From Candidatus Saccharimonadia bacterium (GTDB taxonomy: Bacteria; Patescibacteriota; Saccharimonadia; CAILAD01; CAZGYV01): 63,140 nucleotides of DNA. The position numbers were made by a program, and so were the translations under genes. The stretch lies in contig JAYRII010000006.1 of assembly GCA_041906885.1 (NCBI GenBank), positions 1 through 63,140 on the forward strand. The letters run 5' to 3'. The notes beneath the pieces are model-generated. The model did not search any database, had not been told where the DNA came from, and was given only the letters and a program-made list of their open reading frames with translations. Below, piece by piece: positions 3,130-60,610 of this stretch. The first letter of the stretch is position 1, and each line of letters begins with the position of its first letter.

Positions 3130-3165
3130 TAGGCGGTATCGAATCAATATATCCTTGCTTTATAT

Positions 3166-3198
3166 AAGAAGGGGCGGTGTTCGATGCCGCTTCTTCTT
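3166..3198 (+). terminator. possible terminator hairpin
   Basis: AAGAAGGGGCGG-n9-CCGCTTCTTCTT forms a 12-bp stem that includes two G-U pairs. Confidence 0.4.
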
Positions 3199-3244
3199 GC
3201 ATAAGATAGTTGTTTTTTGCCCTATAATAACTAATAGGTGGAAT

Positions 3245-4999: not shown

Positions 5000-5007
5000 G
5001 CTTTTTT

Positions 5008-6123
5008 ATGCCTAAAAAAAGCAAAGCAGAACCAAAGGACGTCGAAGAGCGAACTGAGTTTTCGCCCGAGGTCGAGCGACTAATAGCCAAAGGCCGCGAA
5101 CAGGGGTTTGTGACACAACAAGAAATTTTTTCGGCCGTGCCTGAGGCTGAAGAAAATGTCGAAACACTCGACGATTTGTACACCGCTCTAATGGATCAAG
5201 GAGTCGAGATCACCGATCAGAAGGACAAGCTGATCTGGGCGACCGAGCCCGAAGAAGATATTGAGAATGCCGTCTCGGAAGACTACATTAAGGATATTGC
5301 CGATGATTCTGTGCGGTTGTATCTCCGTGAGATCGGCCGTATTCCGCTAATTAACGCTCAAGAGGAAGTCGCTCTCGCTAAAAGAATTGAGCAGGGTGAT
5401 AAAGCCGCTAAAGACGCCTTAGCCGAAGCTAATATGCGTTTGGTTGTTAGTATTGCCAAGAAATATATTGGCCGCGGGCTTGACTTACTCGATCTGATCC
5501 AGGAGGGTAATACTGGTTTATTACGCGCGGTCGAGAAATTTGATTACACTAAAGGGTTCAAATTCTCGACCTATGCGACTTGGTGGATTCGACAAGCTAT
5601 CACTCGAGCTATCGCCGACCAAGCCAGAGTAATTCGGATTCCGGTCCACATGGTTGAAACGATCAATAAGCTAATTCGTACCCAACGTCGTTTGACCCAA
5701 GAGCTTGGCCGCGAGCCAGCACCTGAGGAGATTGCTACCGAGATGGAAATTGATGTTGAAAAGGTCAACCATATTATTAAGATCAGTCAGGATACTACAT
5801 CGCTCGATGCCACAGTCGGTGAAGATGATGAGTCACGTTTAGCTGATTTTATTCAGGATGAGGACGGCATTAGTCCGGAGGAAGCTGCCACTTATGAGCT
5901 TTTGAAGGAGCACATCGATGAGACGCTGGCGCTACTGACGCCGCGTGAGCAGAAGATTTTACGTATGCGCTTTGGTTTAGAAGACGGTCGCGGTCACACG
6001 CTCGAGGAAGTGGGGCAGGAGTTTGGTGTCACGCGTGAACGGATTCGCCAGATTGAGGCTAAGGCGCTGGCTAAACTTCGTAAGCACAAGGACTCTAAGC
6101 GCTTGCGTGATTATCTGGCTTAA
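5008..6123 (+). CDS. rpoD: RNA polymerase primary sigma factor (sigma-70 family)
   Basis: Region 2 '[19 protein letters not shown]' and region 4 '[24 protein letters not shown]'. Forms the classic dnaG-rpoD pair. Confidence 0.95.
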
Positions 6124-20027: not shown

Positions 20028-20079
20028 ATCAATTATCAATCAGTCTCGTCATCGTGAATTTAATAATTAAAACAATTCT

Positions 20080-20149
20080 GTCATCCTGAACTTGATTCAG
20101 GATCTCTCGTGAAAAAGAGATCAGGGATTCTGAAAAATTTCAGAATGAC
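20080..20149. repeat. full-length 70-bp double-hairpin palindromic element
   Basis: GTCATCCTGAACTTGATTCAGGATCTC-(GATCTCT..AGAGATC hairpin)-GGGATTCTGAAAAATTTCAGAATGAC. Confidence 0.8.
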
Positions 20150-20207
20150 AGGCTAGTAAATTAACGAAAACTAATAAAACTTTTATAAAGAAAGGAATAT
20201 AACAATA

Positions 20208-28485: not shown

Positions 28486-28515
28486 TTGACATGTACGGTA
28501 ATTGTTCGTTATCAT
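28486..28515 (+). promoter_or_regulatory. recA promoter TTGACA-18-TATCAT
   Basis: TTGACA at 28486-28491 and TATCAT at 28510-28515. Confidence 0.55.
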
Positions 28516-28539
28516 AAAACAAGAACAAATAACGAACAA
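28503..28539. promoter_or_regulatory. perfect 11-bp inverted repeat overlapping the recA -10/5' UTR (candidate operator or UTR hairpin)
   Basis: TTGTTCGTTAT-n15-ATAACGAACAA, containing GTTC/GAAC cores. Confidence 0.4.
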
Positions 28540-28549
28540 GGAGTATGGC

Positions 28550-29623
28550 ATGGCAGCAGCAAGTGCTACAATAGTGAAGTCAGAAAAAGTAAAGCAGAGT
28601 GAGGAAGTTTTGACTCCTAAAGATCAGAGCGGCAGTGATAAAGGTGCCCGCGTCAAAGCGGTCGAGCTAGCTGTCGAGCAAATTGAACGGCAATTTGGCA
28701 AGGGTGCGATTATGAAATTGGGTGAGAGCTCAAAGGTGCAGGTTGAGACTATACCGACCGGTAGCTTGAGCTTGGACTTGGCTCTTGGTGGTGGTATACC
28801 AAGGGGTCGGATCGTTGAGATCTACGGACCCGAGTCCAGCGGTAAGACCACTCTAGCACTTCATGCTGTGGCTGAAGTCCAAAAGAAAGGTGGGTTGGCG
28901 GCATTCATTGATGCTGAGCATGCACTTGACCCGGAGTATGCTGCTAAGATTGGCGTTAAACTTGATGATTTACTTATTTCCCAGCCAGATACTGGTGAGC
29001 AGGCCTTAGAGATTTGTGAGACGTTGGTACGCTCTAGTGCCGTTGATATCGTGATTGTTGACTCGGTGGCCGCCCTGGTGCCACGAGCAGAGATCGAGGG
29101 CGAGATGGGCGACTCACACATGGGCTTGCAAGCTCGCCTGATGAGTCAAGCTCTACGTAAGTTGACCGGTGTAATCAGTAAATCCAAAACTACTGTTATA
29201 TTCATCAATCAGTTGCGCATGAAGATCGGTGTGATGTTTGGTAGCCCAGAAGTAACCTCTGGAGGTAACGCACTCAAATACTATTCAAGTGTCCGGATGG
29301 ACATTCGCCGCAGTGAGCAGCTTAAGGATGGTGATAAGAGTGTTGGTAATCATGTCAAAGTAAAGGTTGTGAAGAATAAGATTGCCGCACCATTTAAGAT
29401 TGCAGAATTTGACATCATGTTCAACGAGGGAATTTCTCGAGCTGGGGACTTAATTGACCTGGCCGTCAAATACGATCTGGTGAATAAGGCAGGAGCTTGG
29501 TACGCCTACAAGGACGAAAAAATTGGCCAGGGTAGGGAAGCCGCCAAGCAATTTCTAAAAGAACATCCAAAAGTCATGGATGAGCTAGATGCTGCTATTC
29601 GCAAGCAAGAAGCCGCGAGCTAG
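28550..29623 (+). CDS. recA: recombinase RecA
   Basis: '[20 protein letters not shown]' Walker A and '[28 protein letters not shown]'. Start at the ATG at 28550, 6 nt after AAGGAG. Confidence 0.97.
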
Positions 29624-29661
29624 CCAAACCGTAATTGTCTAATAATAAGCTGGTGGTACTT

Positions 29662-30303
29662 ATGCCTATAATTACCGACATTAGTCCACAAAAAAAGCGA
29701 ACTGGCTACTACAATGTATTTGTAGATGGCGAGTTTGCTTTTAGTTTGAGTGACTTGCAACTATCAAATTCTCATTTATCAATTGGCCAGGCGTATTCAG
29801 AAGCTGATATCATTCAAATCAAAAATGATGCAAATGCTACCAAAGTTTATTCCCGTTGCCTCGACTATATAAGTCGACGTCAGAGATCTGAGTGGGAGCT
29901 GCGTGATTATCTAAAGCGCAAAGAGACCAGTCAAGAAGTAATTGATCAAGTGATAGAAAAATTAATTATCGAAAATCATCTGGATGACTATCGATTTGCC
30001 CAGGCTTGGGTGCATGATCGAGATATGTTGAAGCCGCGATCAAAAAAGCAACTGCAGGCAGAGCTGATTAAAAAGCACATCGCCAAGGACATAATTGTTC
30101 AAGTACTTAGGGCGCAAGATGAGTCACAAGAATTGACTAATTTAAAACAAATAGCCATAAAAAAATTGCCACGTTACAGTGACAGAATAAAATTAACTGT
30201 ATATTTGGTCGGCCAGGGATATAACTATTCCCTGGTTAAAACCACCCTCGATAATTTAATGGCTGAAAATAACGAACTTGGCGGCGACGCCGATAACCAG
30301 TAG
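29662..30303 (+). CDS. recX: recombination regulator RecX
   Basis: Immediately downstream of recA with the typical three-repeat helical pattern ('YNVFVDGEFAFSL...', 'RSEWELRDYLKRK'). Start at the ATG at 29662. Confidence 0.75.
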   Translation: MPIITDISPQKKRTGYYNVFVDGEFAFSLSDLQLSNSHLSIGQAYSEADIIQIKNDANATKVYSRCLDYISRRQRSEWELRDYLKRKETSQEVIDQVIEKLIIENHLDDYRFAQAWVHDRDMLKPRSKKQLQAELIKKHIAKDIIVQVLRAQDESQELTNLKQIAIKKLPRYSDRIKLTVYLVGQGYNYSLVKTTLDNLMAENNELGGDADNQ

Positions 30304-38138: not shown

Positions 38139-41120
38139 ATGGCCCAAAAAGATAAGTCTAAAATCGAACCATCAGCAGCCACTAATACGCTCAGTGATTC
38201 TGAACGTGAAGGACTTGATGTAAAAAACAACGAGAGTAAGATCCGCCTGCAAGCCAAAGGTGTTTATTTTGGTATAGTTGTACTTATAGTGGTTTTTTTA
38301 GCAATTGGCATAACATGGCTAATTCGTGGTCCACTATTAGGGCTTTTTGAGTCATCTTCCGGTATTGTTGCTAGAGTCGGTAACAAGGTCGTTACTAAAG
38401 ACGACTATAATGCATTCGCACCTGCTTACACGAAGTTTGTTCAGTACGGTGACGGTAGCAAAATATCAGATGTGGAGGCCAAAAGGCAGGCATTGAACTT
38501 TTTAATCGATGAAAAAGCACTTGAAATTGAATCTGAAAAAACAGGGATTAAGGTTGATGAGGATGATGTTAATAAAGTATATCAAGGTACCGTGACGCAA
38601 CTTGGTGGTGAGGCTATCTATGCAGCCGGGGTGAAGAGTATGTATGGATGGACTCCGGAGCTAACCAAACGGACGATTCGTAAAAATTTACTTGAAAAAA
38701 AATTAGCTAGCAAGCTCATTGCCGGTCGCTATGTCTATGGCTCTTTTGTCCGTTGGGACTACGATGGAGATGGCATCCCTGCCGAGCAATTAGCTCAAGC
38801 TAAGGAGGGGGCTCGTAAGGCACTTGAGACCATTCAACCGCTCTATAATCGAGGTGCTAGCCAGGAAGAAATCAGTAAGGCAATGGTTAAATTACGTAAT
38901 GATAATCTACAATGGCGAGATAATGTAGTTGGAGTTAACAGTATCAATATTAGCATCAATGATGAAACTGCAAAAGAAATCTTTCATGAGCCACAAGATT
39001 GGCAATCGATTTCTAAGTTAAATAAAATAGGTCAGGATACCGGTGTGGTAGAATCGGCGGCAGGTTACTTTTTCATCTATCGCTTGACGCGTATAGACAA
39101 AGGTCGATACAACAGTTGGTCTGATTTTTATGAGCAGGCAGAGAAAAAGGCTAAAATCTACTCTTACGGTCAAACTGCAAAGTCGGTGGCTTTTGGACTG
39201 CTCAAGTCAACCATTGGTGAAGCGCGTGCCCAGTCGTTGATCTGTCGTGATTCTAAAAAGGGCAAATTATCTATAATACAGCGATTTCTGGGTGTTGGCA
39301 TAGCTGGAGCTGAAGGACCCATTAATTGTGGCAATCATTGGAGCCAGGTTTGGGGTACAGTATTGAGCGGTGCCACCTGGCTGCCTATTCCAAGTGCTAG
39401 GGTAGATTTTGCAGCCTCTGATCGCACACCAACATGTCGCCCGGTGCCATCGGAGGGTGAGACCGATTGGGAAGCGTTTGACTTCACAGTCTATACGAAC
39501 AGTGGAGGTACGTTTGTTGCTGGTCCAGAGCCGACTGGATCAAGTAGAAAGATAAGTTGCTGGACACGTTGGAATACAACCATTTCAGCAGCGGGGTATA
39601 AGTCAGCCAGTTGGAATGATTATTCTGTAGGACCAAATGGCAGTTCTCTTTGTCTGGATCGTAGCGATCCTGCTTGGACACCACCAAAATTCTTTGGTTC
39701 TTATCCAAATTTGAATACTGATGGCAATTGTCAGTTATTCTTGGAGCCAAACTTGCCACCACCACCTCCCGCTTATGGTAACGTGCAGTTTATATCAAAA
39801 CTAACAGATCCATACTATTCTAGTTCATCTTATTATGGGGATGAGTGTTTGATTGGTGGTTGGGCAGTTGATGGTTCTGCTCCTAAATCTTCTATACCAA
39901 TAGATATTTATTTTGATAGCGATAAAACTGCTGGAGCATCTGCAACAGTTAAGGTACCAGCTGCCGATAAACCATGGAAAGGAGTCCAAGGGGATCTTAG
40001 TAAGTATGGTATCGATCCGGGGCCGGATAATGGACCAGGTCATGGGTTCTTTATCAAAGTGCCTGATCATCTCAGAGACGGTAAATCGCACTTTGTTTAC
40101 GCCGGTGGCATTAGGCCGCTTGGTAATTGGTGGCTAAGTGGCTCACCGTTATCGTTTACTTGCATGCCGGAACCAAAATATTACCCTTGGCTGCAGTCTC
40201 TCAACGGTGATGTAGTAGCTGGTGGCAATATTACCGGCCAGAAAATTGGCGTGGCTGGTAGTCGGAGTGCGTCTGCGATAGACAAAGAAGCATCATATTT
40301 AGTGATTATTAGCGCAATCAGCAAGTCCGGTAATGATTTTTGCAGTACTAATGCCTACTCAATTGGTGATCTCGGCATTAATTGCAAAGCGAGCACCTAT
40401 GCTGTTAATAGCAAGTACATGGACTATGGCTCGGTCGCTAGTGGTGTCGAGCAGCTGTGGAATAAAAATGGTGCCGGTGCGGGCGGCATTTGTACGACTG
40501 GTATGAGCAAGTATTTGACGGGTAATTTGAGCTCATCCGGCGTTAATCTTAATCACCCCGGAGGCAATGATCTGTCCGGCGGCTGTGCCAATGGCAAGAT
40601 TTGGAAGGCAACCGGAGACTATCAGTTGGGTGACAAGACCTTTGATACTGGCCGAGCAACCTATTGGGTTGATGGTAATCTGGCCTTGACGGGCAATATT
40701 CTAGCTAGTCTTAAATCGAATTATGGCAATCCCAAAGACGTGCCAAGTCTCGGCATCATAGTCGATGGTGACATAACGATCGATCCGAATGTCACTGAGA
40801 TCGATGCGAGTTTATTTGCTACTGGCAAGATTTACACTTGTCACCCAGCTGGACTTACAACTAGCGGTACAGCCTATTACAGGACCAATGGCCCAATTTG
40901 CAAGAAAAGCCTCAGTGTCAATGGCTTGATGAGTGCAATTGGCGGGTTTACACTTGGCCGGACATACATCACTAATTTCTCGGGTGGTTCTGGTAGTCCA
41001 GCTGAGAAGTTGGTGGCAAGTGCTCAGGCAATGGCCTTCCCGCCACCAGGCTTTGGTGATGACTCCAGTGTCACAATTCAAAACTTTAAATACCTAGGTG
41101 AAGCTGCTCCTCGGTTCTAA
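38139..41120 (+). CDS. large membrane-anchored protein: N-terminal TM, SurA_N/PpiD-like chaperone region, and a C-terminal module of about 445 aa shared with the 42190 gene
   Basis: 993 aa with TM 'GIVVLIVVFLAIGITWLI' and 'ARVGNKVVTKDDYNAF...ALNFLIDEKALEIESEK'. The C-terminal module (39783-41120) is paralogous to 42818-44472. Confidence 0.7.
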   Translation: MAQKDKSKIEPSAATNTLSDSEREGLDVKNNESKIRLQAKGVYFGIVVLIVVFLAIGITWLIRGPLLGLFESSSGIVARVGNKVVTKDDYNAFAPAYTKFVQYGDGSKISDVEAKRQALNFLIDEKALEIESEKTGIKVDEDDVNKVYQGTVTQLGGEAIYAAGVKSMYGWTPELTKRTIRKNLLEKKLASKLIAGRYVYGSFVRWDYDGDGIPAEQLAQAKEGARKALETIQPLYNRGASQEEISKAMVKLRNDNLQWRDNVVGVNSINISINDETAKEIFHEPQDWQSISKLNKIGQDTGVVESAAGYFFIYRLTRIDKGRYNSWSDFYEQAEKKAKIYSYGQTAKSVAFGLLKSTIGEARAQSLICRDSKKGKLSIIQRFLGVGIAGAEGPINCGNHWSQVWGTVLSGATWLPIPSARVDFAASDRTPTCRPVPSEGETDWEAFDFTVYTNSGGTFVAGPEPTGSSRKISCWTRWNTTISAAGYKSASWNDYSVGPNGSSLCLDRSDPAWTPPKFFGSYPNLNTDGNCQLFLEPNLPPPPPAYGNVQFISKLTDPYYSSSSYYGDECLIGGWAVDGSAPKSSIPIDIYFDSDKTAGASATVKVPAADKPWKGVQGDLSKYGIDPGPDNGPGHGFFIKVPDHLRDGKSHFVYAGGIRPLGNWWLSGSPLSFTCMPEPKYYPWLQSLNGDVVAGGNITGQKIGVAGSRSASAIDKEASYLVIISAISKSGNDFCSTNAYSIGDLGINCKASTYAVNSKYMDYGSVASGVEQLWNKNGAGAGGICTTGMSKYLTGNLSSSGVNLNHPGGNDLSGGCANGKIWKATGDYQLGDKTFDTGRATYWVDGNLALTGNILASLKSNYGNPKDVPSLGIIVDGDITIDPNVTEIDASLFATGKIYTCHPAGLTTSGTAYYRTNGPICKKSLSVNGLMSAIGGFTLGRTYITNFSGGSGSPAEKLVASAQAMAFPPPGFGDDSSVTIQNFKYLGEAAPRF

Positions 41121-41195
41121 AATTCGATATCCTAGAGTTGTTCTGCACTCATTGCATTTGCTCTCGTGCTCTATTATCATAAGAACTAAGTAATT

Positions 41196-42197
41196 ATGGT
41201 AAATCTACCAGACAAGAGAGAGCAGAGGAAACTAGGCCTACATAAATCGCATGTCTTGGCTTGGGGGCTTGGTATTGTAGTGGTGTTGTTGACTGTTCTA
41301 GGTAGCTACTATTATCTACAAAATCAGAAGAGGCAAGAGAACGCCAAGTACGCCTTCGCGATCAATGAAAAAAAATATTCCAAATCAGAGCGCCAAAGTG
41401 TTTATATAAATTCAATCAGGAACAACCTGAGTACTGATGACTTTAATCGCAAATACTTAGAGCTAAAAAAACTGCAGTATGTCGCTGAAAAGAACAATAT
41501 TGTGATAAATAAAGATTTGCTAAATAAAAAAATGGCAGAAATTTACCCAGATAAGAAAGATAAAACTTTTGATCAACTAGATATTGTTCAGCAAAAATCA
41601 ATCTATGATAATGTTTTTATTTATGCAGCCTTTGCTAATACCAAAGGCCAATACGAAGGAACTATTTTTGTTTTCCCATTCGCTCGGCATATTACAGATT
41701 ATGAGGGTCATCTCAGTGCTAAAGTGGCAGACTCGAATAAGTTTGGGATTATTTCGGCTTATGATCCAGCCCAAGTTGAGGTTGATAAACGCTATGCCCA
41801 AGAAAGAGCAAAATATTATCATGATGGTCTCACTAATGGATCAATCAACGAGTCAGAGGCTTTAAAGGAGATAATGGCTGATAAAAAGCTTGCAAACGTA
41901 AACTCAACCAATGAAAGTACAGCATTTAAAAATGACGGTACTGTAAATTGGCAAGACATGATTAGGATCGAAGGCGCAATTGATTATATAAAGTCATTAA
42001 AAAGTCCAACTTTAAGTAGCATTCAAACCAGCAAGACAGATGTTGTTAACAACAGTCAGAAAAGCAATGTTGAAGCTCAATTCTATTTTGTCAAACTAAA
42101 TAAGGCACAACCCGCTAAAAATGGAGTAGATTTTACAACTCTGAAGAAACAAATTGACGAACAAATCAAACAACTCAAGGTGACTATCTATGAGTAA
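41196..42197 (+). CDS. membrane-anchored hypothetical protein, AT-rich (about 35% GC), SurA_N-like start
   Basis: 333 aa with one N-terminal TM segment. Its stop overlaps the start of the next gene. Confidence 0.6.
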   Translation: MVNLPDKREQRKLGLHKSHVLAWGLGIVVVLLTVLGSYYYLQNQKRQENAKYAFAINEKKYSKSERQSVYINSIRNNLSTDDFNRKYLELKKLQYVAEKNNIVINKDLLNKKMAEIYPDKKDKTFDQLDIVQQKSIYDNVFIYAAFANTKGQYEGTIFVFPFARHITDYEGHLSAKVADSNKFGIISAYDPAQVEVDKRYAQERAKYYHDGLTNGSINESEALKEIMADKKLANVNSTNESTAFKNDGTVNWQDMIRIEGAIDYIKSLKSPTLSSIQTSKTDVVNNSQKSNVEAQFYFVKLNKAQPAKNGVDFTTLKKQIDEQIKQLKVTIYE

Positions 42198-44472
42198 ACT
42201 TAGTATCGTGAAAAATATAATTACGAGACTAGGGTTAATTATAATTATAGTTGTCGCTTATCAAGCAGTGTTAATTTTCGTCGGTGCTCCTAAAGCTCAA
42301 GCAAGCCATGTTTGTGGTATTGAACCTGGTGGTGGTGATTCAAATGCAAAGATGGCTTATGGAGGGCTAGTTATTAACTTAGTGGTTCAGAGGTCTGATG
42401 GCTCTACATTTGAGGCCCTTGGCAATATAGGGATGCAATTTACTAGTGAGAATAATATGCCACCTGGGTTATGGGGGGCGGAGCTTGCACAGTATAAAAA
42501 ATTAGGGTTTGATCCTCATATGTCTGCTGGCACTATACCACAAACTGGAGGACATGATTTAAGTATGAAAAATTGCTGGTTTACTGGTGATGGCGCTGGT
42601 GTGGTATTAGGAAACGGGCATGATGATGAAGATTGGGTGATCGATTGTAATGCTAGCGTGCGTGGTGGAGATCCAGGGGGAGCTTGGTATACCGGTTATG
42701 GTATTCCTGATGGTGCTAAGGGCGGTGGTTGGTGGGATAATAAGATGATAAACGCTGCTAATGGCACAACAACTGTTTTTCAGCTTCGATATCATGAGCC
42801 GATACCCCCTAAAAACGGCTGGGCAGTATTTGTACCGAAGTTGACGGATTCATTTTTTAACAGCACACCTTACTATAATCAAGATTGTCTAATCGCTGGC
42901 TGGGCGGCCGATACCTATAGTGATCCATACAGAAGCATATTTCCGACCAGATCAGTCGCAATACGTATTTATTGGGACGGTGCGGGGTTGCCGGCAGCTT
43001 ATGTAGATATACCAGCCGCTAATCAGCCCTGGCCTGGCGTCCAACAAGTCATGTTGGATCCCCCTTATGGTGTGAATGTAGGAGGAGATAAAAGCCCTGG
43101 ACATGGCTTTATGGTGCAACCACCTGCTTATTTACAGGATGGTAATACACATATGGCTTATGTCTATGGTATCAGTCCGTATACTGGCGATTGGCAGCTA
43201 CAGGCCTCACCGGTATCATTTCGCTGTTCGGCTGCTCCAACCGAATACGATCCTTGGCTGCAGACTGGTAATGGTAGCGTCAATGCCTGGGGTAAGATAG
43301 TTGGGCAAAACTTTGGCGCTCCAAGCTTTGGCCAGCGACCCAATCAGTCCAATCCTACTGATCCAGTCGAATCAACCTATCTAGTAATGGCAGCCTTGCA
43401 GCGTGGAGATAAATCTAACACTAGTGCTCAAACTGGCAAGTTCTGCAGTAATAATCAATACATTCTTGGTGCTAATTCATCGGGCTGTAATATGTTTAAT
43501 CGCTACAAGTTTGACCTGACCGAGAGCTATGTGGCTGGTAATACATTTGGCTCGCCGCTAGGATATGTGATGCAAAATCCCGGCTCGACAGTTTCTAATC
43601 TACTCAATGGCACAAACGGCGAGATTGTTGATATGATGCACACCAAGCTAGGAGTTTGGCAAGCAGATGTCAGAAATTGTAGCCCTGGCTGGATTAGAGA
43701 GCTTAGGATGGATTCCGCTGGACTAAATGGTAATAATTTTGGTGGCAGTGGAACCGATACGCAGCTGTTTCGTCCTTCAACAATTACTGTACCTTCCATC
43801 TCAGATTATTATCCGACCTCTGGGGTTTATGGAGCTAATTTAAATTTATCAGGTGGACCTTACTGTTACTCATCAGTATTAGTTACTACGCCATCATCTA
43901 GTACGAATCGATTCGATATTGATCTGGGTACACGGACATTTGTGTCGGGCGGACGAGTGACATATTGGGTAAGACCTCAGGGTAGTGCCCCTGGTTCTTA
44001 CAATGGTAGAGATACTTATATCAAGTCAAATATAAATGTGAACTCCACTTCTAGCTACACGCATCCTAATCAAATTCCTCAGATCGCAATTGTTTCAAGT
44101 GGGGATATATATATTGACCCAGATGTCACTAATCTCGATGCCAGCTTATATTCGACAGGCAAGATCTTTACTTGCTACCGTCCAGAACCAACCACGCATA
44201 GTTCTGCGGCTGCCACTATATACTATAAAAACAATGGCCCAGCTTGCAAAAGACAACTCACCATTCGTGGTAGTGTGATGGCGCGCAGTGGCTTTGAATT
44301 TGGCCGGACATACTTTGCAAATCCCGGTACATTTTATAGTTCTGCCGAACAAATCTACATGACAGGTCAAGCCTTAGCCTTCCCACCACTTGGTTGGAAT
44401 AAGGATAATCTGACCAATAAGGAAAGCATGAACGTGCGTTACCTTGATAGTAATGAAGGACCTAGGTTCTAG
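42190..44472 (+). CDS. large secreted protein, paralog of the C-terminal module of the 38139 gene
   Basis: 760 aa with a signal peptide ending 'APKAQA|S'. Shared blocks include 'KLTD..F/Y', 'GWA.D', 'SPGHGF', 'DPWLQ', 'IDPDVTNLDASLYSTGKIFTC', 'NGPACK' and 'ALAFPP', and it ends in 'PRF'. Confidence 0.7.
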   Translation: MSKLSIVKNIITRLGLIIIIVVAYQAVLIFVGAPKAQASHVCGIEPGGGDSNAKMAYGGLVINLVVQRSDGSTFEALGNIGMQFTSENNMPPGLWGAELAQYKKLGFDPHMSAGTIPQTGGHDLSMKNCWFTGDGAGVVLGNGHDDEDWVIDCNASVRGGDPGGAWYTGYGIPDGAKGGGWWDNKMINAANGTTTVFQLRYHEPIPPKNGWAVFVPKLTDSFFNSTPYYNQDCLIAGWAADTYSDPYRSIFPTRSVAIRIYWDGAGLPAAYVDIPAANQPWPGVQQVMLDPPYGVNVGGDKSPGHGFMVQPPAYLQDGNTHMAYVYGISPYTGDWQLQASPVSFRCSAAPTEYDPWLQTGNGSVNAWGKIVGQNFGAPSFGQRPNQSNPTDPVESTYLVMAALQRGDKSNTSAQTGKFCSNNQYILGANSSGCNMFNRYKFDLTESYVAGNTFGSPLGYVMQNPGSTVSNLLNGTNGEIVDMMHTKLGVWQADVRNCSPGWIRELRMDSAGLNGNNFGGSGTDTQLFRPSTITVPSISDYYPTSGVYGANLNLSGGPYCYSSVLVTTPSSSTNRFDIDLGTRTFVSGGRVTYWVRPQGSAPGSYNGRDTYIKSNINVNSTSSYTHPNQIPQIAIVSSGDIYIDPDVTNLDASLYSTGKIFTCYRPEPTTHSSAAATIYYKNNGPACKRQLTIRGSVMARSGFEFGRTYFANPGTFYSSAEQIYMTGQALAFPPLGWNKDNLTNKESMNVRYLDSNEGPRF

Positions 44473-50161: not shown

Positions 50162-51439
50162 ATGATCGATTTTATTTATACAGCAAGGGAGAAGGACACC
50201 GGCAAGCTTGTCAAAGGCACGATCGCGGCCGATAGTGAGACAGCGGCTGGTCGGCTTTTGATTGAGAAAAATCTCTTTCCGGTTAAGTTTACGCTCAAGA
50301 GTCAGCAAACTATTGCTGGTATCAATGTATCGGGGCTGAGCCGGGTTAGTGGCAAAGACCGGGTCATATTTACGCGGCAATTGGCCACTCTGATCAAAGC
50401 CGGTCTGCCGATCGTCCAAGCACTCTCGACTGCCTCAGAGCAAGTCCAAAGCCAGAAGTTCAAGGATATTTTAGAACGCATCAAGGGCTCGGTCGAGGGG
50501 GGAGCCAGCTTATCCGACTCATTTGCCCAATTCCCGGAGGTCTTTAACCAGACATACATCAGCCTGGTCGCGGCTGGTGAAGCTTCTGGCACGCTCGATA
50601 AGACGCTCGAACGCTTGGCTAGCCAGCAGGAGAAGGAAATGGCTATCATCTCCAAGGTGCGCGGCGCTCTAATCTATCCACTGCTGGTGCTAGCGACCAT
50701 CATCGGTGTCTTGGCTTTTATGCTGGTCAGTGTCTTGCCCCAGATTGCGCAGCTCTATAAGGAGCTCGGTAAGCAATTGCCGCCACTGACATCTGCCTTG
50801 ATCGCTGTGCAGCAGTTCACGACTAAGTTCTGGTGGCTGACACTAGCTATGATCGTCGCGGCCGTGCTGGGCATCAGGGCCTATACCAAGACGCCCCATG
50901 GACGGCGCAACATGGACCGCTTCAAGCTTAATATGCCGGCCTTTAAGACGCTCTTTCGCAAGGTCTATATGGCTCGCTTTACGCGCACGCTCGGCTCGCT
51001 GGTAGCCTCTGGTGTGCCGCTCTTGGAGGCTCTGGCGATTTGCTCTGAGGCTGTTAATAACTTGATCATCAAAGAAATTATTGATCACGCTGCCCAGCAG
51101 GTGAAAGGTGGTAAAGCGCTGTCGCTCACGCTATCGAATAATCAGTATTTCTTGCACCTGGTGCCACAGATGATCAAGATCGGTGAGGACTCTGGTACAC
51201 TCTCGGATATGCTCGATAAGGTGGCTAGCTTCTACGAGGACGAGGTCGACCAGACGGTCAAGAATATCTCGACTATCATTGAGCCAGTCTTGATGATTGT
51301 GCTTGGCTTCATGGTATTTTTCATAATTATCGCTATTCTATACCCAGTCTACTCGCTGGTGGGTGGGGGAATAGGTAGCGGCCAGAGTATAGGTGGCTCG
51401 TCTACTAATACTAGTGGCAGTACTGGGACAGCAAAATAG
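50162..51439 (+). CDS. pilC: type IV pilus platform protein PilC (GspF family)
   Basis: Two GspF repeats ('FTRQLATLIKAGLPI...', 'FTRTLGSLVASGVPLLEAL') and 3 TM segments. Confidence 0.9.
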   Translation: MIDFIYTAREKDTGKLVKGTIAADSETAAGRLLIEKNLFPVKFTLKSQQTIAGINVSGLSRVSGKDRVIFTRQLATLIKAGLPIVQALSTASEQVQSQKFKDILERIKGSVEGGASLSDSFAQFPEVFNQTYISLVAAGEASGTLDKTLERLASQQEKEMAIISKVRGALIYPLLVLATIIGVLAFMLVSVLPQIAQLYKELGKQLPPLTSALIAVQQFTTKFWWLTLAMIVAAVLGIRAYTKTPHGRRNMDRFKLNMPAFKTLFRKVYMARFTRTLGSLVASGVPLLEALAICSEAVNNLIIKEIIDHAAQQVKGGKALSLTLSNNQYFLHLVPQMIKIGEDSGTLSDMLDKVASFYEDEVDQTVKNISTIIEPVLMIVLGFMVFFIIIAILYPVYSLVGGGIGSGQSIGGSSTNTSGSTGTAK

Positions 51440-51518
51440 CTATTTGTAAGAAGTAATATATTTCTTACAAAAAACTGTTTGACTTCACGGGAGTCTTGTA
51501 ATAAAGTAAGCACAAGCG

Positions 51519-51654
51519 CTTTTATATACGCTTCTATACTCTCGTATAAATAACAAAACTCAAGGAGGAGGTAAGAAATATCATGCAATTAACTAAGAAA
51601 AAAGGTTTCACCCTGATTGAAATCGTTATCGTGCTGGCGATTGCGGCACTGATA
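51519..51654. repeat. left arm of a perfect 136-bp inverted repeat (pilin 5' UTR plus the first 24 codons)
   Basis: Reverse complement of 52445-52580 with no mismatch by eye. Confidence 0.85.
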
Positions 51655-51984
51655 CTTATCATTGTGTTCTTGGCGGTGTCAGGTGCGCAAAGGGAGAGAA
51701 GAAACGACGGACGTAAAAATATCGCTGGGCAAGTGGTTGCAGCTGTTCAAACATTTCAGGGAAATAATGGTGGCGCTTTACCAACAAATGCCTCACCATC
51801 TACCCAGTTGCAAAGTATTGTTATAAATAGAGATGTACCGGGAGTGGGTACTATGACAATTAACGTGTCCGCCCTACCGTCTTGTACGAATACAGGAAGT
51901 GCCATAGTAACATTTAATGGATCTACTACTGTTCGCGCATGTCTAGAAGGTAACGGAACCACTGGATACGACCTTACATTGTAG
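51583..51984 (+). CDS. type IV pilin (prepilin with a G|FTLIE cleavage/methylation site)
   Basis: 'MQLTKKKGFTLIEIVIVLAIAALIL'. Confidence 0.85.
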   Translation: MQLTKKKGFTLIEIVIVLAIAALILIIVFLAVSGAQRERRNDGRKNIAGQVVAAVQTFQGNNGGALPTNASPSTQLQSIVINRDVPGVGTMTINVSALPSCTNTGSAIVTFNGSTTVRACLEGNGTTGYDLTL

Positions 51985-52005
51985 GTTAGTGTGACAGTGA
52001 CTTCA

Positions 52006-52036
52006 TTAAAAAAGACCCTCAAAGGGTCTTTTTTAA
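52006..52036. terminator. bidirectional terminator between the convergent pilin genes
   Basis: AAAAAAGACCCT-caa-AGGGTCTTTTTT. Confidence 0.8.
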
Positions 52037-52051
52037 TGAAACTACCTTACT

Positions 52052-52516
52052 CTACGAAGCGTTATCGATACAAACTACCGTATTACCACTTTCCACCCAG
52101 TAGGTAATAGCTAGAGTGTTTCTACTTGGTGTGTGAGTTACTCCATTAAAGGTTTGTGCTGTGTTAGCTATGCCTCCAGCAGCAGTACATACGTAGGCGT
52201 CTCTATACCTAAATCTTTGGCCGGCGGTAGATGTGGCAGCTGCGTTATTGTAGTTCGGATCTTCACCTTGTCCATTTTGAATGCCTTGGGTGTAGTTACC
52301 TGGTAGATTAGCACCTAAAGGCAAGGTGCCTCCATTATTCGCGAAGTTTTCAAACTGCGCAGAAAGACGAGCTGCGGCATTTTTAGTCACATCGTCACGT
52401 CTAGAACGCTGTGCACCCCCGACAGCTAGGAATACTATCACTAATATCAGTGCCGCAATCGCCAGCACGATAACGATTTCAATCAGGGTGAAACCTTTTT
52501 TCTTAGTTAATTGCAT
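52052..52516 (-). CDS. type IV pilin, second variant, convergent with 51583
   Basis: The first 24 residues are encoded by DNA identical to the 51583 gene. The C-terminal domain is divergent. Confidence 0.85.
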   Translation of the reverse strand: MQLTKKKGFTLIEIVIVLAIAALILVIVFLAVGGAQRSRRDDVTKNAAARLSAQFENFANNGGTLPLGANLPGNYTQGIQNGQGEDPNYNNAAATSTAGQRFRYRDAYVCTAAGGIANTAQTFNGVTHTPSRNTLAITYWVESGNTVVCIDNAS

Positions 52517-52580
52517 GATATTTCTTACCTCCTCCTTGAGTTTTGTTATTTATACGAGAGTATAGAAGCGTATATAAAAG
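52445..52580. repeat. right arm of the perfect 136-bp inverted repeat
   Basis: See the left arm. A strong hairpin, GCGCCGC-n8-GCGGCGC (52584-52605), lies just outside it. Confidence 0.85.
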
Positions 52581-52669
52581 AAGTGCGCCGCTTTCAAAAG
52601 CGGCGCAGGGTACTCTAGGCAGTTTTGGCATACAAAAATGTGCTACAATTATAAGCGTAAGAATTTATT

Positions 52670-53290
52670 ATGATCAAAGCTACAAAACAAACCCGTCATT
52701 CTGGGTCACAAACCTGTCGTCCTGAACAGCGCTCGCTGACTCATCCCCGTCATTCTGGCTTGCGTGGCCGTCATTCTGAATTTATTTCAGAATCTACATT
52801 GAGTGCTAACAAGATCCTGAAACGAGTTCAGGATGACATTAGAAGTCAGGGTGATAACAAAGGCCGGGGTGGCGTTCAAATCCAAGGTAGCACTACCCAA
52901 AGGGGCTTCACGATCGTCGAGACGCTCTTTGTGCTCGCAATCGGCGGACTGATCTTGATAATGACATTCCTAGCGCTCGGCCAGACCAATCGCTCTAAGC
53001 GCGACGCCCAGCGCAAGACGGACTTTGCTAAGATCAATCAGAATATCGCCTCCTGGACAAATGAGCACCATGGTATATTGCCGACTGGTACTGCTGCAGT
53101 ACAGACTGCATCGGCACCAATACCCGATTCGCCAGATGGGAGTGGAAATCCATATGATGTGACCGCTACTTCCATCACTACTGCTTGCGGCGCTGGGTCA
53201 ACGAACAATATCTACTACGAGCGGACAAACGATAGATCATACAAAATAAAAATCTGTTTAGAATCAGGAGAATTCATTGAAAACCACTAA
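52670..53290 (+). CDS. pilin-like protein (G|FTIVE site); true start uncertain
   Basis: 'QRGFTIVETLFVLAIGGLILIMTF'. The only in-frame ATG lies about 75 codons upstream, and the ORF there reads through repeat elements. In-frame TTG codons also exist. Confidence 0.6.
   Translation: MIKATKQTRHSGSQTCRPEQRSLTHPRHSGLRGRHSEFISESTLSANKILKRVQDDIRSQGDNKGRGGVQIQGSTTQRGFTIVETLFVLAIGGLILIMTFLALGQTNRSKRDAQRKTDFAKINQNIASWTNEHHGILPTGTAAVQTASAPIPDSPDGSGNPYDVTATSITTACGAGSTNNIYYERTNDRSYKIKICLESGEFIENH
52693..52837. repeat. cluster of three half-sites plus one full 68-bp element (52770-52837)
   Basis: GTCATTCTGAATTTATTTCAGAATCTAC-ATTGAGTGCTAACAA-GATCCTGAAACGAGTTCAGGATGAC. Confidence 0.8.
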
Positions 53291-53927
53291 CAAAAATGGC
53301 TTTACTTTAATTGAAATAATAATAGTTTTGGCGATTGGTGCTTTGATAGTTCTGATTGCATTTATTGGTGTACCAATGGCCAAGCGTATGATACGTGACA
53401 ATCAGCGCAAGAGTGATCTAGAGAACACGGCAATTGCCTTTAAAGCTTTCCAAAGTGCTCACAATGGCTGCTTACCGACCTGGCTTGATAATGGAACTAT
53501 AGGGCCGCCCATGTATCCTCCGAGGCGTCCTGAATTGCCGCCTTTTCCTGCTGATTGTGAAAATAGTTATCTATTTGGTGCTGCCATGGCCGGCATAAGT
53601 CCAATGCTTGACGCAAGTAAGCTTATTGCTGGTGGATATTATCATCCAAATACGTATGGCATTGATCCGCTAGCACGTCAGAGATACCAATGGCACGAAA
53701 TTGGCCCAGATTATGGTATGGGTATGAAACCAGCAACCATGCACCCTAATTGTACGGATGCAGATTCTAAACCCACGGAGAGTACGCCTGCACGAATAAA
53801 ATATTACCGTGAAGTCGATTATAGAACAGTAACTCTTGGTATTGATCGATCGCAGATTCCTCACAGATTTGCACTCGGTATTTGCCTTGAGGCAGGGGAA
53901 GAGTTTATCCAGGAGTTTGACTTCTAG
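53277..53927 (+). CDS. type IV pilin-like protein (TTG start)
   Basis: 'KNGFTLIEIIIVLAIGALIVLIAF'. AGGAG lies 7 nt upstream of the TTG. Confidence 0.8.
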   Translation: MKTTNKNGFTLIEIIIVLAIGALIVLIAFIGVPMAKRMIRDNQRKSDLENTAIAFKAFQSAHNGCLPTWLDNGTIGPPMYPPRRPELPPFPADCENSYLFGAAMAGISPMLDASKLIAGGYYHPNTYGIDPLARQRYQWHEIGPDYGMGMKPATMHPNCTDADSKPTESTPARIKYYREVDYRTVTLGIDRSQIPHRFALGICLEAGEEFIQEFDF

Positions 53928-53975
53928 AGCTCGCTGGTACTAGTCCTTCAGCTTGGCATTTTGAACAGCAATCCC

Positions 53976-54160
53976 GTCATCCTGAACTTGATTCAGAATC
54001 TACGTTGAGTGCCAACAGATCCTTCGACTTCGCTCAGGATGACAATTGTCCTGACCCGCTGACCACTTCTGTCATTCTGATCCGGCGGTTGCCGGAGAAG
54101 AATCTACTCCCGCTACGAAGCAGATCCTGAATAGTGAGCCAGCGAGCACTGCTTAAGGAC
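53976..54160. repeat. one full 68-bp element (53976-54043) plus a second variant element
   Basis: GTCATCCTGAACTTGATTCAGAATCTAC-GTTGAGTGCCAACA-GATCCTTCGACTTCGCTCAGGATGAC, followed by GTCATTCTGATCCGGCGGTTGCCGGAGAAGAATCTAC... Confidence 0.75.
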
Positions 54161-54196: not shown

Positions 54197-54239
54197 TGAA
54201 TTACTGCAACGGTTATAATGGATGAAAGGGAAGAAGCTT

Positions 54240-54899
54240 ATGGCTCTAACAAAAGAAGACATTTCACAGATCAAAAACCTGATCGACACCATGGATATAT
54301 CACGTATACGCATGGCTATGCGCACAGATATCGAGGAGGTGATGGAGGAGAAGGTTGGTAAATTTGAGATCAAGATTGATCAAAAATTCGCTGATGCTGA
54401 AGTCAAGATCGACCAAAAGTTAGCCGATTTCGAGACGAAGATGTACGAAAAGTTCGCTATCGCTGAGGCTAGTGTAGATGAAAAGTTCGCTATCGCTGAG
54501 GCTAGTGTAGATGAAAAGTTCGCTATCGCTGAGGCTAGTGTAGATGAAAAGTTTGATAATTTCGCTGCCATGGTGCAGAGGCAGTTTGTGCACATCGATA
54601 CTAGGTTTGATAAGCTTGAAGCTAGGTTTGATAAGCTTGAGGCCAGAATGGACAGGCTTGAGGATAGGATGGATAAAATTGAGATCAAGGTTGGTCATCT
54701 AGAAGGGAGAATAGCAAGCATGGAATCAAAGATTTTGGCCATAGAAGCTGAGCTTGAGGAGATTAAAGAAGAGCTCAAGCAGATTAGTACTAGGTCTAAA
54801 GAAGACGCCGATTATCAAGGCTATGAAATCATCAAGCTGGGCCGCCGGGTGACGCAGCTAGAAGATGAGGTGGGTGAGCTTAAGAAAGCTATTAAGTAA
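54240..54899 (+). CDS. coiled-coil repeat protein of unknown function
   Basis: Heptad-like 'D.KF...' repeats, 3x 'EKFAIAEASVD', and 'TRFDKLEARFDKLEARMDRLEDRMDKIE'. Start taken at M7 of the tracked ORF. Confidence 0.6.
   Translation: MALTKEDISQIKNLIDTMDISRIRMAMRTDIEEVMEEKVGKFEIKIDQKFADAEVKIDQKLADFETKMYEKFAIAEASVDEKFAIAEASVDEKFAIAEASVDEKFDNFAAMVQRQFVHIDTRFDKLEARFDKLEARMDRLEDRMDKIEIKVGHLEGRIASMESKILAIEAELEEIKEELKQISTRSKEDADYQGYEIIKLGRRVTQLEDEVGELKKAIK
54447..54545 (+). repeat. perfect 33-bp x3 in-frame tandem repeat, plus a partial fourth unit
   Basis: GAAAAGTTCGCTATCGCTGAGGCTAGTGTAGAT repeated three times. Confidence 0.9.
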
Positions 54900-54923: not shown

Positions 54924-55231
54924 GATTCTTCTCCGGCAGCTGGCGGAGAAGAATGACAGAGGTGGGCAGCAGTTCAGATTGACAGCGCGGAGCTGGCCTG
55001 CTTGTTACCTTGGGTGTAAAAGCTGTCATCTTGAGCGTAGTCGAAAGATCTCTCGCCACGGTCATCCTGAACAGCGAGCTTGTGAGCGCGTTTCAGGATC
55101 TCGCCGGCACGGTTGTCATCCTAAAGCGTAGTCGAAAGATCTGCTGGCACAAGATATAGATCCTGAATCAAGTTCAGGATGACAGGAGCAGAGTTAGATG
55201 CGGAATGACAGAGTAAGTGGTTCAGGACGAC
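54924..55231. repeat. dense cluster of at least 7 hairpin arms of the GTCATYCT.../...RGATGAC family
   Basis: Examples are GTCATCTTGAGCGTAGTCGAAAGATCTC (55025), GTCATCCTGAACAGCGAGCTTGTGAGCGCGTTTCAGGATCTC (55061), GTCATCCTAAAGCGTAGTCGAAAGATCTGC (55115) and GATCCTGAATCAAGTTCAGGATGAC (55159). Confidence 0.8.
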
Positions 55232-55359: not shown

Positions 55360-56160
55360 ATGGATAGAGCGCAGCTAGCATTTATACTAGAAATCATCTT
55401 TGGCGGTTTCGGTTTGCTCTTTGGCAGCTTCATCAACGCTTGGGTCTGGCGCGTCAAGAACGGCAAGAAGGTTAGTCGAGGCCGCTCAATGTGCCCACAT
55501 TGTAAATGTCAGCTAAAGTCTCGTGATTTAGTGCCAGTATTAAGTTTCATCTGGCTAAGAGGTCGTTGCCGATGTTGCAATAAGCCAATCTCTTGGCAAT
55601 ATCCGATCGTCGAGCTCATCACGGCATTTACTTTCATTTGCCTGGCAGCTTATTTCTTACCCTTGGCAAACCTGCAACTCTTCTCGCTCGCGATCTGGCT
55701 GGTGGTGGCGGTATTGGTGATCGCCGCAGCTGTCTACGACTACAAATGGATGATCTTACCAGATCGCTTCATGCTGCCCGCGATTGGCTTAGGCCTGGTC
55801 TACGTCGTCGGCTTGGCGCTCATGACTGGCCAAGTTACAGTTATCTGGCGGCTGGTAGCGGCTCTGATATTTGCTGGCTTTTTCTTCTCACTGTGGTATT
55901 TCTCGGGCGGTAAATGGATGGGCGACGGCGACATTCGGATCGGCTTCTTGATGGGATTGATGCTCTCACCAAGCCAGCTGATAGTGGCTATCTTCTTGGC
56001 CTTCAATATCGCCGCAGTCGTGTCGCTGGTGCTGATTGCAACCAAGCTGCGCACGCGCAAAGACCTCATCCCATTTGGCCCCTTCCTGATCCTGGGTATG
56101 TTTCTAGGCCTATTCTTGGGCGAACGACTGGTGGCTTGGTACACGAATTTCTTGGTATAG
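55360..56160 (+). CDS. pilD: prepilin peptidase (A24 family, PilD)
   Basis: 'CPHCKCQL...LRGRCRCCNKPISWQYPIVE' zinc motif, multiple TM segments, and 'GGKWMGDGDIRIG'. Confidence 0.9.
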   Translation: MDRAQLAFILEIIFGGFGLLFGSFINAWVWRVKNGKKVSRGRSMCPHCKCQLKSRDLVPVLSFIWLRGRCRCCNKPISWQYPIVELITAFTFICLAAYFLPLANLQLFSLAIWLVVAVLVIAAAVYDYKWMILPDRFMLPAIGLGLVYVVGLALMTGQVTVIWRLVAALIFAGFFFSLWYFSGGKWMGDGDIRIGFLMGLMLSPSQLIVAIFLAFNIAAVVSLVLIATKLRTRKDLIPFGPFLILGMFLGLFLGERLVAWYTNFLV

Positions 56161-59498: not shown

Positions 59499-60413
59499 TT
59501 ATTTATTACCGGAGTGAAACTTCTTGTGGACTTCCTTGAGCTGGGGGTCGGTCAGGTGAGTGTAGACTTGAGTGGTCGAGATATTACTGTGGCCGAGCAT
59601 CGACTGGACGCTTCTGAGATCGGCCCCGTTGACCAGTAAGTCGGTCGCAAAGGAGTGGCGCAGAGTATGCGGCGTGACCCGCTTGGTGATACCAGCCAGC
59701 TTACCATAACGCTCGACTGAGCGCTGGATCGAGCGAGTCGTCAGCCGGGTGTAATTGCCATAATCTATCTCTGTCTTAGAGCCACTATAGTGTATAAAAA
59801 GCGGCTCAAAATTGTCAGTTCGGTCTTTGAGGTAATTTTCGAGTGCTATGACGGCATCCCTCGACAGATAAACGGGACGATCTTTTTGGCCTTTGCCGCG
59901 GATAGTAAATTCACCTCGTGCTAGGTTGATACTATTGCGGTTGAGACTGGTAAGCTCAGAGACGCGCAGGCCGCTGGAGAAGAGTAACTCCAAAATTGCC
60001 AAATCACGTAAGCCGATCACGGTTGACTTGTCAACTGCCTTAAATAATCTATCTACTTCGTCGCGCGCCAGGAAGCTGACCTGAGGGCGCTTGACAGTAG
60101 CTAGCTCGATTTTATCAGCTGGCAAAGTCTTGACGTTGCGTCTGGCCAAATACTTTAGGAAACTGCGCAAAGCGATCAGGTGGTAATTCTGGGTGGTCCG
60201 ACTAATAGTCCGGCCGTCTTCGGATCGAAAGCGATTTAGCCACTGGCGCCATTTGGTGATCATATCAAGGTCAATCTCGCTGACTTTAACCTCATCGCCG
60301 GCAAAGTCAAGGAAGCGATTGAGGTAATGAGAGTAATTTTCGATCGTTTTGAGGCTGCGACCCTTCTCGACTTCAAGGTAGTCGAGAAAATCGCCCATGT
60401 ATTCGGCAAACAT
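59499..60413 (-). CDS. tyrosine recombinase, XerC/XerD family
   Basis: Core-binding N-domain and a catalytic 'R...HTLRHSFAT...LGHSNISTTQVYTH' (R-H-R-H-Y pattern). Start at the ATG at 60413 rather than the tracked TTG at 60449. Confidence 0.85.
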   Translation of the reverse strand: MFAEYMGDFLDYLEVEKGRSLKTIENYSHYLNRFLDFAGDEVKVSEIDLDMITKWRQWLNRFRSEDGRTISRTTQNYHLIALRSFLKYLARRNVKTLPADKIELATVKRPQVSFLARDEVDRLFKAVDKSTVIGLRDLAILELLFSSGLRVSELTSLNRNSINLARGEFTIRGKGQKDRPVYLSRDAVIALENYLKDRTDNFEPLFIHYSGSKTEIDYGNYTRLTTRSIQRSVERYGKLAGITKRVTPHTLRHSFATDLLVNGADLRSVQSMLGHSNISTTQVYTHLTDPQLKEVHKKFHSGNK

Positions 60414-60492
60414 ACCTTTTAGGATAAGCGTTTTATTTGCAGGGTGCAAGCTCCTCTTTACTTTTGAACAGTTCCTCCTTCATCCTTAGCTA

Positions 60493-60610
60493 GATTCTTC
60501 ACTCCGTTTGAGAATGACAACATACCAACCGTCATCCTCAAGCAACAGTCGAAGGATCTATTCCCCCCAAACACCCATCATGTCATCCTGAACTCGTTTC
60601 AGGATCTGTC
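60493..60610. repeat. three hairpin arms of the same repeat family
   Basis: GATTCTTCACTCCGTTTGAGAATGAC, GTCATCCTCAAGCAACAGTCGAAGGATCT and GTCATCCTGAACTCGTTTCAGGATCT. Confidence 0.75.

Follow-up and report, generated by a model that had tools for sequence, protein, structure and literature searches.

A candidate two-cassette pilin switch bracketed by a perfect 136-bp inverted repeat in a type IV pilus locus of Saccharibacteria

Variation of surface proteins in Campylobacter fetus depends on RecA-mediated inversion between the conserved 5′ regions of full-length S-layer homologues (sap), which are served by a single promoter. This promoter lies on the invertible element between opposed homologues, the shared 5′ regions extend over several hundred bp, and up to 8-9 cassettes are present. 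In the pilE/pilS system of Neisseria, RecA-dependent, non-reciprocal gene conversion from truncated silent copies generates mosaics. The R64 pilV shufflon consists of several segments with 19-bp sfx sites, an adjacent gene for the recombinase Rci, and C-terminal exons of a minor (tip) pilin. In the opposed tfpQ/tfpI pilin genes of Moraxella bovis and M. lacunata, inversion is performed by Piv, an enzyme of the DEDD/IS110 family that is encoded alongside and uses short sites; the promoter and the N-terminal coding region are fixed, and only C-terminal parts are exchanged (PMC4073114). Among the predicted targets of gene-altering programmed inversions, the annotation 'Pilin' is over-represented 8.4-fold (Milman et al., 2023; PMC9881135). 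Here, a locus of Candidatus Saccharimonadia (Saccharibacteria, TM7) is described in which two convergent type IV pilin genes are bracketed by a perfect 136-bp inverted repeat. The stretch analysed, referred to as the window, is the complete 63,140-nt contig JAYRII010000006.1 (GCA_041906885.1). We give about an even chance to the reading that this locus is a RecA-driven, two-cassette switch of the major pilin in a PilT-containing type IV pilus locus.

Inverted repeat, pilins and transcription signals

Segment 51519-51654 and the reverse complement of 52445-52580 agree at 136/136 bases; the window contains no other such pair. The repeat, the pilin genes and the transcription signals around them are located as follows.

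51519..51654, forward strand: left arm, a 64-nt 5′ leader with a Shine-Dalgarno sequence followed by codons 1-24
52445..52580, reverse strand: right arm, an exact inverted copy of the left arm
51655..52444, no strand: core of 790 bp between the arms, containing both variable pilin bodies and their common terminator; the segment that would invert
51583..51984, forward strand: pilin 1, proximal in this assembly; 133 amino acids, prepilin with an 8-residue leader and G-1/F+1/E+5; PF07963, TIGR02532
52052..52516, reverse strand: pilin 2, distal in this assembly; 154 amino acids; PF07963, TIGR02532
51479..51507, forward strand: predicted sigma-70-type pilA promoter, TTGACT-17-TAAAGT, from a consensus scan; ends 11 nt before the left arm, outside the repeat
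52002..52040, no strand: predicted bidirectional intrinsic terminator of the convergent pilins; perfect 18-bp stem with A and T tracts, -24.5/-25.6 kcal/mol on the two strands, z about -6.7
52584..52607, reverse strand: predicted inward-facing intrinsic terminator; -18.2 kcal/mol, z -3.9, GC-rich, with a T tract (CTTCTTTTAT) that enters the first bases of the right arm

The leader in each arm carries AAGGAGGAGG, and codons 1-24 encode MQLTKKKGFTLIEIVIVLAIAALI. No homology was found going outward from either arm, and the inner edge of the arms is abrupt: extended arm alignments cover 174 nt at 92% or 207 nt at 86%, and in codons 25-40 the DNA identity of the two pilins is 54%. At that identity the probability of 136 consecutive matches is about 6e-37, and a chance origin of the repeat is excluded. 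Within codons 25-40, 13 of the 16 residues are the same, and 10 of these 13 codons contain silent changes; codons 1-24 and the leader contain 0 differences. Because silent changes abound past codon 24 and are absent from the arms, the pilin genes must have diverged long ago and their 5′ module must have been homogenised recently. The genes are thus old paralogues whose arms are actively homogenised by recombination. The 5′ leader has no significant fold (z = -0.24), and Rfam and tRNA scans of the window gave no matches.

The first 24 residues of pilin 1 and pilin 2 are identical, and their globular domains are different. Both open reading frames (ORFs) begin with MQLTKKKG/FTLIEIV, which contains the G/FTLIE cleavage motif of a class III signal peptide, and both score above the cut-offs of PF07963 (29.7 and 29.8 bits; cut-off 21.2) and TIGR02532 (27.5 and 29 bits; cut-off 16.3). 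In the AlphaFold model of pilin 1 (pLDDT 82), an α1 helix at residues 11-61 is followed by four β strands, and in that of pilin 2 (pLDDT 92), an α1 helix at residues 11-60 is combined with a β sheet of five strands. Both models therefore have the lollipop fold of pilins, a long α1 with a small β sheet, and their head domains are unlike each other. A pair of cysteines is conserved within each pilin family (C101/C120 and C110/C149, respectively). Foldseek searches with the two models gave no significant match, the best full-length one being Thermus PilA4 (TM 0.55), and a sequence search of the PDB matched only the N-terminal helix. The closest relatives among 5.8 billion proteins are at most 52% identical to pilin 1 and at most 53% identical to pilin 2. 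Hybrid pilins were sought via protein clusters, in which both pilins form single-member clusters.

The two positions that the pilins occupy are unequal. On the left, the -35 element TTGAC(T/A), the -10 element and the downstream AAGCACAAGCGC are kept at an equal distance from the pilin start in the related loci L007, L008, L185 and L196 (five species together with that of the window). On the right, the terminator at 52584-52607 sits where the promoter sits on the left and points into the distal pilin gene; a homologous inward hairpin occupies the same position in L185 (1412-1431), a contig of a second species. Hairpins homologous to that at 52002-52040 are also found after the pilin in L185 (781-838) and L007. 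Only the pilC-proximal position therefore seems to be served by the conserved pilA promoter, and the arrangement would consist of an expression site on the left and a silent, insulated one on the right. Because the distal site is without a conserved promoter and is shielded by the inward terminator, one pilin is probably made and the other stored. In both the window and L185, the distal pilin gene has an undisrupted reading frame and a ribosome-binding site of its own, yet no conserved promoter, and its preservation in this state argues for periodic use. A minus-strand sigma-70-like match, TTGATC-18-TATAAT at 52677-52648 (10/12), lies upstream of the shielding hairpin; it was considered as a promoter of pilin 2 and discounted, being not conserved in L185 and lying opposite the promoter of the following gene, pl3, on the reverse strand.

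A first-pass annotation of this DNA had reported the perfect repeat, the 64-nt 5′ untranslated region, Shine-Dalgarno sequence and 24 codons in each arm, the rapid divergence of the pilins beyond it, and a bidirectional terminator shared by the two genes. These claims are confirmed, the arm coordinates being exact, and the two different upstream contexts that it noted correspond to the conserved TTGACT promoter at 51479 and the conserved inward terminator.

Related loci and homogenisation of the arms

Comparison of the locus among related genomes, which the first-pass annotation had proposed, revealed the same layout in a second species, on the ENA MEGAHIT contig L185/L189, which was located via the context of the pilin homologue P0042. 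The order on this contig is the end of pilC, the same promoter, an arm, P0042 (141 amino acids, forward strand), a bidirectional terminator, P0103 (165 amino acids, reverse strand), an arm and the inward hairpin. The arms of L185 form a perfect repeat of 140 nt (284-423 and 1270-1409), whose outer and inner boundaries coincide with those in the window. The arm sequences of the two species differ at about 17-21 positions, every one of which is common to both arms of a species; inter-arm differences number 0 in each species, for which the Poisson P(0) is <1e-7 if the arms evolved independently. Because the interspecies differences are always found in both arms, the arms evolve in concert and recombine far faster than they mutate, in agreement with the ongoing recombination or homogenisation suggested by the earlier annotation. 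This concerted evolution shows conversions between the arms indirectly; crossovers we only infer.

A third species is represented by L008, a metagenome-assembled genome (MAG) from metaSPAdes with a PilC identity of 85%, in which the contig breaks off precisely 55 nt beyond that outer boundary. This end is the signature of a repeat break at k=55, and L008 is therefore probably a third cassette-bearing species. L007, which has the closest PilC, contains a single pilin and no repeat. In global alignments, PilC identity is 90.5% between the window and L007, 85.0% between the window and L008, 84.8% between L007 and L008, and about 72-73% between L194 and each of these. Because PilC groups the window with L007 and places L008 outside, the simplest view is that the cassette is ancestral and that L007 has lost it. 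The only pilin of L007, in proximal position, is a full-length match (69% identity) to P0103, the distal reversed gene of L185. At least one inversion would explain the different positions of this body type, with cassette replacement as the alternative. Orthology of pilin 2 and P0042 (44% identity) was considered as a second positional swap and rejected, many other pilins being closer to pilin 2.

In a scan of GTDB genomes, which does not include the species of the window, the closest PilC proteins are 91% and 82% identical by tblastn (90.5% and 85.0% in the global alignments above). About 37 Saccharibacteria loci were located through pilC, and the repeat is present in none of them. In a scan of JGI metagenomes with PilC, the best match was 66%, so the species of the window is absent from them and they supplied no phased contigs. 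Tandem pilin paralogues with homogenised 5′ blocks in direct repeat are present in L014 (4664-5601; 300 nt, 99%) and L029 (3834-4937; 294 nt, 96%). These blocks comprise the promoter, the leader and the N-terminal 60-73 codons, and the remainder of the genes is divergent; the homogenised block of the window begins just past the -10 box. Because tandem paralogues show it as well, concerted evolution of the pilin 5′ module is general in Saccharibacteria. In L029 (PilC 44%), both pilins between pilC and pilD are on the strand opposite to the machinery (3000-5300), and no flanking inverted repeat was detected in this region.

Orientation of the core and rival explanations

The genes that enter into the proposed mechanism and its alternatives are the following.

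50162..51439, forward strand: pilC, T2SSF platform protein (Pfam E=8.7e-64); the last machinery gene before the cassette, on the side of the expression site
55360..56160, forward strand: pilD, prepilin peptidase (Pfam A24_N_bact and Peptidase_A24)
28502..30303, forward strand: recA (28502-29623; Pfam RecA E=1e-138) and recX (29635-30303; RecX domains); a role at the arms would be expected under the switch
59499-60449, reverse strand: tyrosine recombinase of Xer type; matches XerC and XerD models at E of about 1e-73, with scores short of the equivalog cut-offs

In the proposed switch, the promoter would be fixed outside the repeat and the distal, silent site would be insulated by the terminator. 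Reciprocal recombination between the 136-bp arms, mediated by RecA, would flip the 790-bp core and thereby exchange which pilin stands behind the promoter; both pilin proteins would be unchanged by the flip, and their maturation would occur at the same PilD site. Non-reciprocal gene conversion would keep the arms identical, and a dedicated invertase would be unnecessary. Repeats of 136-140 bp exceed the minimal homology for RecA pathways. Saccharibacteria carry out allelic exchange (PMC11623550). The flipping of the core itself we infer from the sequence rather than from observation.

Exact-protein look-ups yielded Logan contigs that are 100% identical to the window and represent both linkages: that of the window in three (L001, L087, L006), and the inverted one in four (L002-L005), which connect pilin 2 with the left flank or pilin 1 with the right. 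Logan assemblies use k=31, and all 31-mers of an accession are distinct by construction (PMC12424806). For this reason both orientations yield the same Logan graph, and a 136-bp repeat cannot be phased. Most of the contigs break off at 51548 (30 from the start of the arm), 51654 (its last position) or 52551, and 20 or more samples contain the right-flank unitig 52551-54099. When a fixed orientation was simulated (100-150-nt reads, 3-8x coverage, minimum k-mer count 2), arm-crossing unitigs were joined to the true and the false partner at about 1:1. The k=31 graph, the stops at the repeat boundaries and the simulated joins led us to reject the Logan contigs as proof of inversion. As a general caution, any segment bounded by inverted repeats longer than 31 bp will appear to occur in both orientations when k=31 assemblies are queried for exact proteins. 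Three of the contigs (L004, L003 and L006) end non-randomly inside the core, at 51655 and 51693-51694: one at the first base past the arm, and two, from different projects, where the homology of pilin 1 and pilin 2 stops. Co-occurring variants with longer converted tracts and trimming by the assembler are possible causes of these ends.

Several observations weigh against the switch. The 3:4 split of the Logan contigs is uninformative because the same split is expected under a fixed orientation, and no phased pair of orientations in one population was obtained from public contigs, in which k=31 cannot link across the arms. In the species of L185, the right arm is crossed by four MEGAHIT contigs, which agree on a single linkage. 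They are compatible with a dominant orientation, and flipping may be rare, although these contigs are few and k=141 is at its resolving limit with a repeat of 140 nt. In addition, L007 manages with one pilin, transformation-mediated cassette replacement could move bodies between positions without inversion, the promoter and terminators are consensus predictions, and the promoter match at 52677-52648 could feed the distal pilin if termination at 52584-52607 leaks.

One alternative is a pair of static convergent paralogues, in which gene conversion homogenises the 5′ modules, inversions are rare or selected against, and both pilins are expressed, for example in two filament types or in mixed filaments, the distal one from a weak or unrecognised promoter of its own. 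Homogenised 5′ blocks have formed without inversion in L014 and L029, the contigs of the L185 species show one linkage, and the 10/12 sigma-70 match is directed at pilin 2. However, the repeat of the window leaves out the conserved promoter that the tandem cases contain, the inward terminator conserved in two species would bar upstream transcription from the distal gene, and the 10/12 match is not conserved in L185 and lies in reverse across the pl3 promoter region. Moreover, RecA recombination of inverted repeats normally yields crossovers as well as conversions, and a pilin of the P0103 type occupies the distal place in L185 and the proximal one in L007. We consider static paralogues unlikely, although they deserve serious weight. 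Site-specific inversion at a core site inside the arms, carried out by the Xer-like enzyme or by an invertase encoded elsewhere and with the long identity as a by-product, is distinctly improbable. A tyrosine recombinase does lie 7 kb away, as the first-pass annotation had pointed out, the arm boundaries are equal in two species, as protein-recognised sites would set them, and the search for invertases spans the 63-kb contig only. This recombinase, however, scores 227.3 on the XerA-type model (cut-off 220), an FtsK with a gamma domain is encoded at 24190-26313, and the order of type IV pilus cluster, xer and mnmG is found at 57-76% identity in about 17 Saccharibacteria loci without the inverted repeat. 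Its family, its FtsK partner and its conservation irrespective of the pilin repeat all point to a syntenic housekeeping Xer, as in Xer/dif resolution of chromosome dimers, and not to a locus-specific invertase, so that the suggested link to the repeat is not supported. Genes for Piv/IS110 (DEDD_Tnp_IS110, Transposase_20), serine invertase or Rci-type enzymes were not found among the approximately 50 ORFs of the contig, and site-specific systems use short sites and would not by themselves produce a concerted identity of 136-140 bp.

The distal gene might also be a stored allele: either it or transformed DNA would replace the proximal body by a double crossover, with the arm and the palindromic terminator providing homology. 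All four bodies in the two species differ, in contrast to the conserved arms and terminators, both species lose the homology at about codon 24, and natural competence is described for Saccharibacteria (PMC10633639). Against this explanation, to which we attach little credence, the distal copy is complete, with a ribosome-binding site, start codon and signal peptide that a pure donor would not need; and because the arms are inverted, a simple crossover in an arm inverts rather than replaces. The pilS copies of Neisseria, unlike the distal pilin, are truncated. Finally, MAG contigs can be chimeric at repeats, and orientation across a 136-bp repeat can be arbitrary, so that the locus could be a collapsed or chimeric join of the pilin alleles of two strains. 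This is exceedingly improbable: the four arm junctions and the inner segment are reproduced at 100% identity in independent Logan assemblies of >20 runs from several projects, contigs end exactly at the repeat boundaries (51548, 51654, 52551), and the same structure is found in L185, which was assembled by another group. The assembly artefact that the first-pass annotation had named as a refutation may accordingly be set aside.

The pilus locus and known systems

The genes of the locus are arranged in the order pilM/N/O, pilB, pilT, pilC, the two pilins, two more pilin-like genes, a coiled-coil gene, pilD, four minor-pilin-like genes, the Xer-type recombinase (reverse strand) and mnmG. Assembly machinery and a prepilin peptidase are thus encoded alongside both pilins, as expected of major pilins. 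The pilC gene is 100% identical in many Logan contigs, and both pilins would be substrates of PilD, given their identical leaders. In its gene content (PilT, PilD, PilMNO and several pilins), the locus corresponds to 'locus one' of Nanosynbacter lyticus TM7x, which makes an essential thick pilus involved in twitching; nearly all Saccharibacteria have type IV pili, and pili mediate their episymbiosis (PMC11623550).

Other features were noted in the surroundings of the cassette. Directly upstream of pilM, at 38139-44472, are three large ORFs of 993 amino acids (with only a SurA_N-like N-terminus), 333 amino acids and 760 amino acids (the latter two without a Pfam match), which may encode pilus-associated surface proteins. 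The pilin-like gene that follows the cassette (52670-53290; 1557-2072 in L185) has an ATG homologous to the start of the short gene of L007, and its leader contains about 60-70 extra in-frame codons of elements resembling repetitive extragenic palindromes (REP; RHSG...RHSEF) ahead of the G/FT cleavage motif. The frame is open in two species (206 and 171 amino acids), and the gene has either a very long prepilin leader or an internal start. A dispersed intergenic motif, CGTCATYCTGAA, occurs 15 times at no more than one mismatch, about one occurrence being expected (13679, 20047-20150, 52694-52838, 53975-54080, 55060-55184 and 60530-60592). It is often found in hairpin pairs such as GATCCTGAAACGAGTTCAGGATGAC, is also present in L185, and looks like an element of this lineage of REP type or of the type of miniature inverted-repeat transposable elements (MITEs). 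The coiled-coil gene (54222-54899) contains perfect tandem repeats of 33 nt x 3.2 and 21 nt x 3.5 and is bracketed by imperfect inverted repeats of about 84% (53972-54045/55113-55187 and 54051-54105/54923-54977). In L007 no such gene separates the pilin-like genes from pilD, so that the coiled-coil gene has the look of an inserted element.

The likely benefit of the proposed switch is an altered pilus surface, with consequences for binding to host cells or surfaces or for recognition by phages or antibodies, with the machinery-contacting N-terminus kept constant. If it is real, the switch bears on the choice and change of hosts, on evasion of phages or host immunity, and on the source of pilin diversity in uncultivated Saccharibacteria. 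A broader and more tentative proposal, which we regard as possible but doubtful, is that an invertase-free switch is conserved in a clade of Saccharibacteria. The leader and N-terminal module of 136-140 bp would act as both recombination substrate and expression adaptor; flipping by RecA would alternate two unrelated pilin heads on an essential retractile pilus, and the module would also accept new bodies by transformation. An obligate episymbiont could then change the hosts or surfaces that it engages, or its recognition by phages or antibodies. Literature searches yielded no inversion-based or phase-variable system from Patescibacteria, and such a switch, if real, would be the first example of phase or antigenic variation known from the Candidate Phyla Radiation.

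As in Moraxella, two opposed type IV pilin genes would share one expression site by pilus genes, and the junctions would lie in the conserved 5′ part. Unlike in Moraxella, the long repeat includes the leader, the ribosome-binding site and the start codon, so that complete genes would be exchanged and only the promoter stays outside; no Piv-like gene is present in the 63 kb, and the N-terminal coding region is not fixed. For the same reason, the swap of variable C-terminal domains envisaged in the first-pass annotation gives way to an exchange of whole genes. As with shufflons, a type IV pilus protein would be varied by DNA inversion, but a single pair of 136-bp repeats takes the place of multiple short crossover sites, and the sole tyrosine recombinase is the syntenic Xer. 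In outcome the locus would resemble Moraxella Piv inversion, but its membership of the Piv or shufflon families, to which the first-pass annotation had likened it, is not supported: their defining enzymes and short sites were not found in the contig.

Like the loci of Milman et al., the present one has inverted repeats within coding sequence that join a gene to an opposed alternative copy, and its target is a specificity-determining surface protein. Those loci typically contain shorter, promoterless partial copies and usually have a recombinase nearby, whereas here both copies are complete and there is no locus-specific recombinase. Recombination by RecA of an expressed pilin with a silent copy would be shared with pilE/pilS of Neisseria, as is a conserved N-terminus with a variable C-terminus; the presumed silent copy is complete here, however, and the predicted event is a reciprocal inversion of two fixed alleles. 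In its logic the locus is probably closer to sap of C. fetus than to Piv or shufflons. It differs from sap in that the promoter would be fixed outside the flipping DNA, the homology is 136-140 bp and the cassettes are two. Common to both are full-length alternative surface-protein genes with an identical 5′ module (136 bp, or 140 bp in L185). One promoter for several cassettes would be a further similarity, to judge by the predicted promoter on the left and terminator on the right. General homologous recombination that leaves the proteins unaltered and requires no dedicated invertase would also be shared; recA and recX are present in the window, and RecA would act at the arms.

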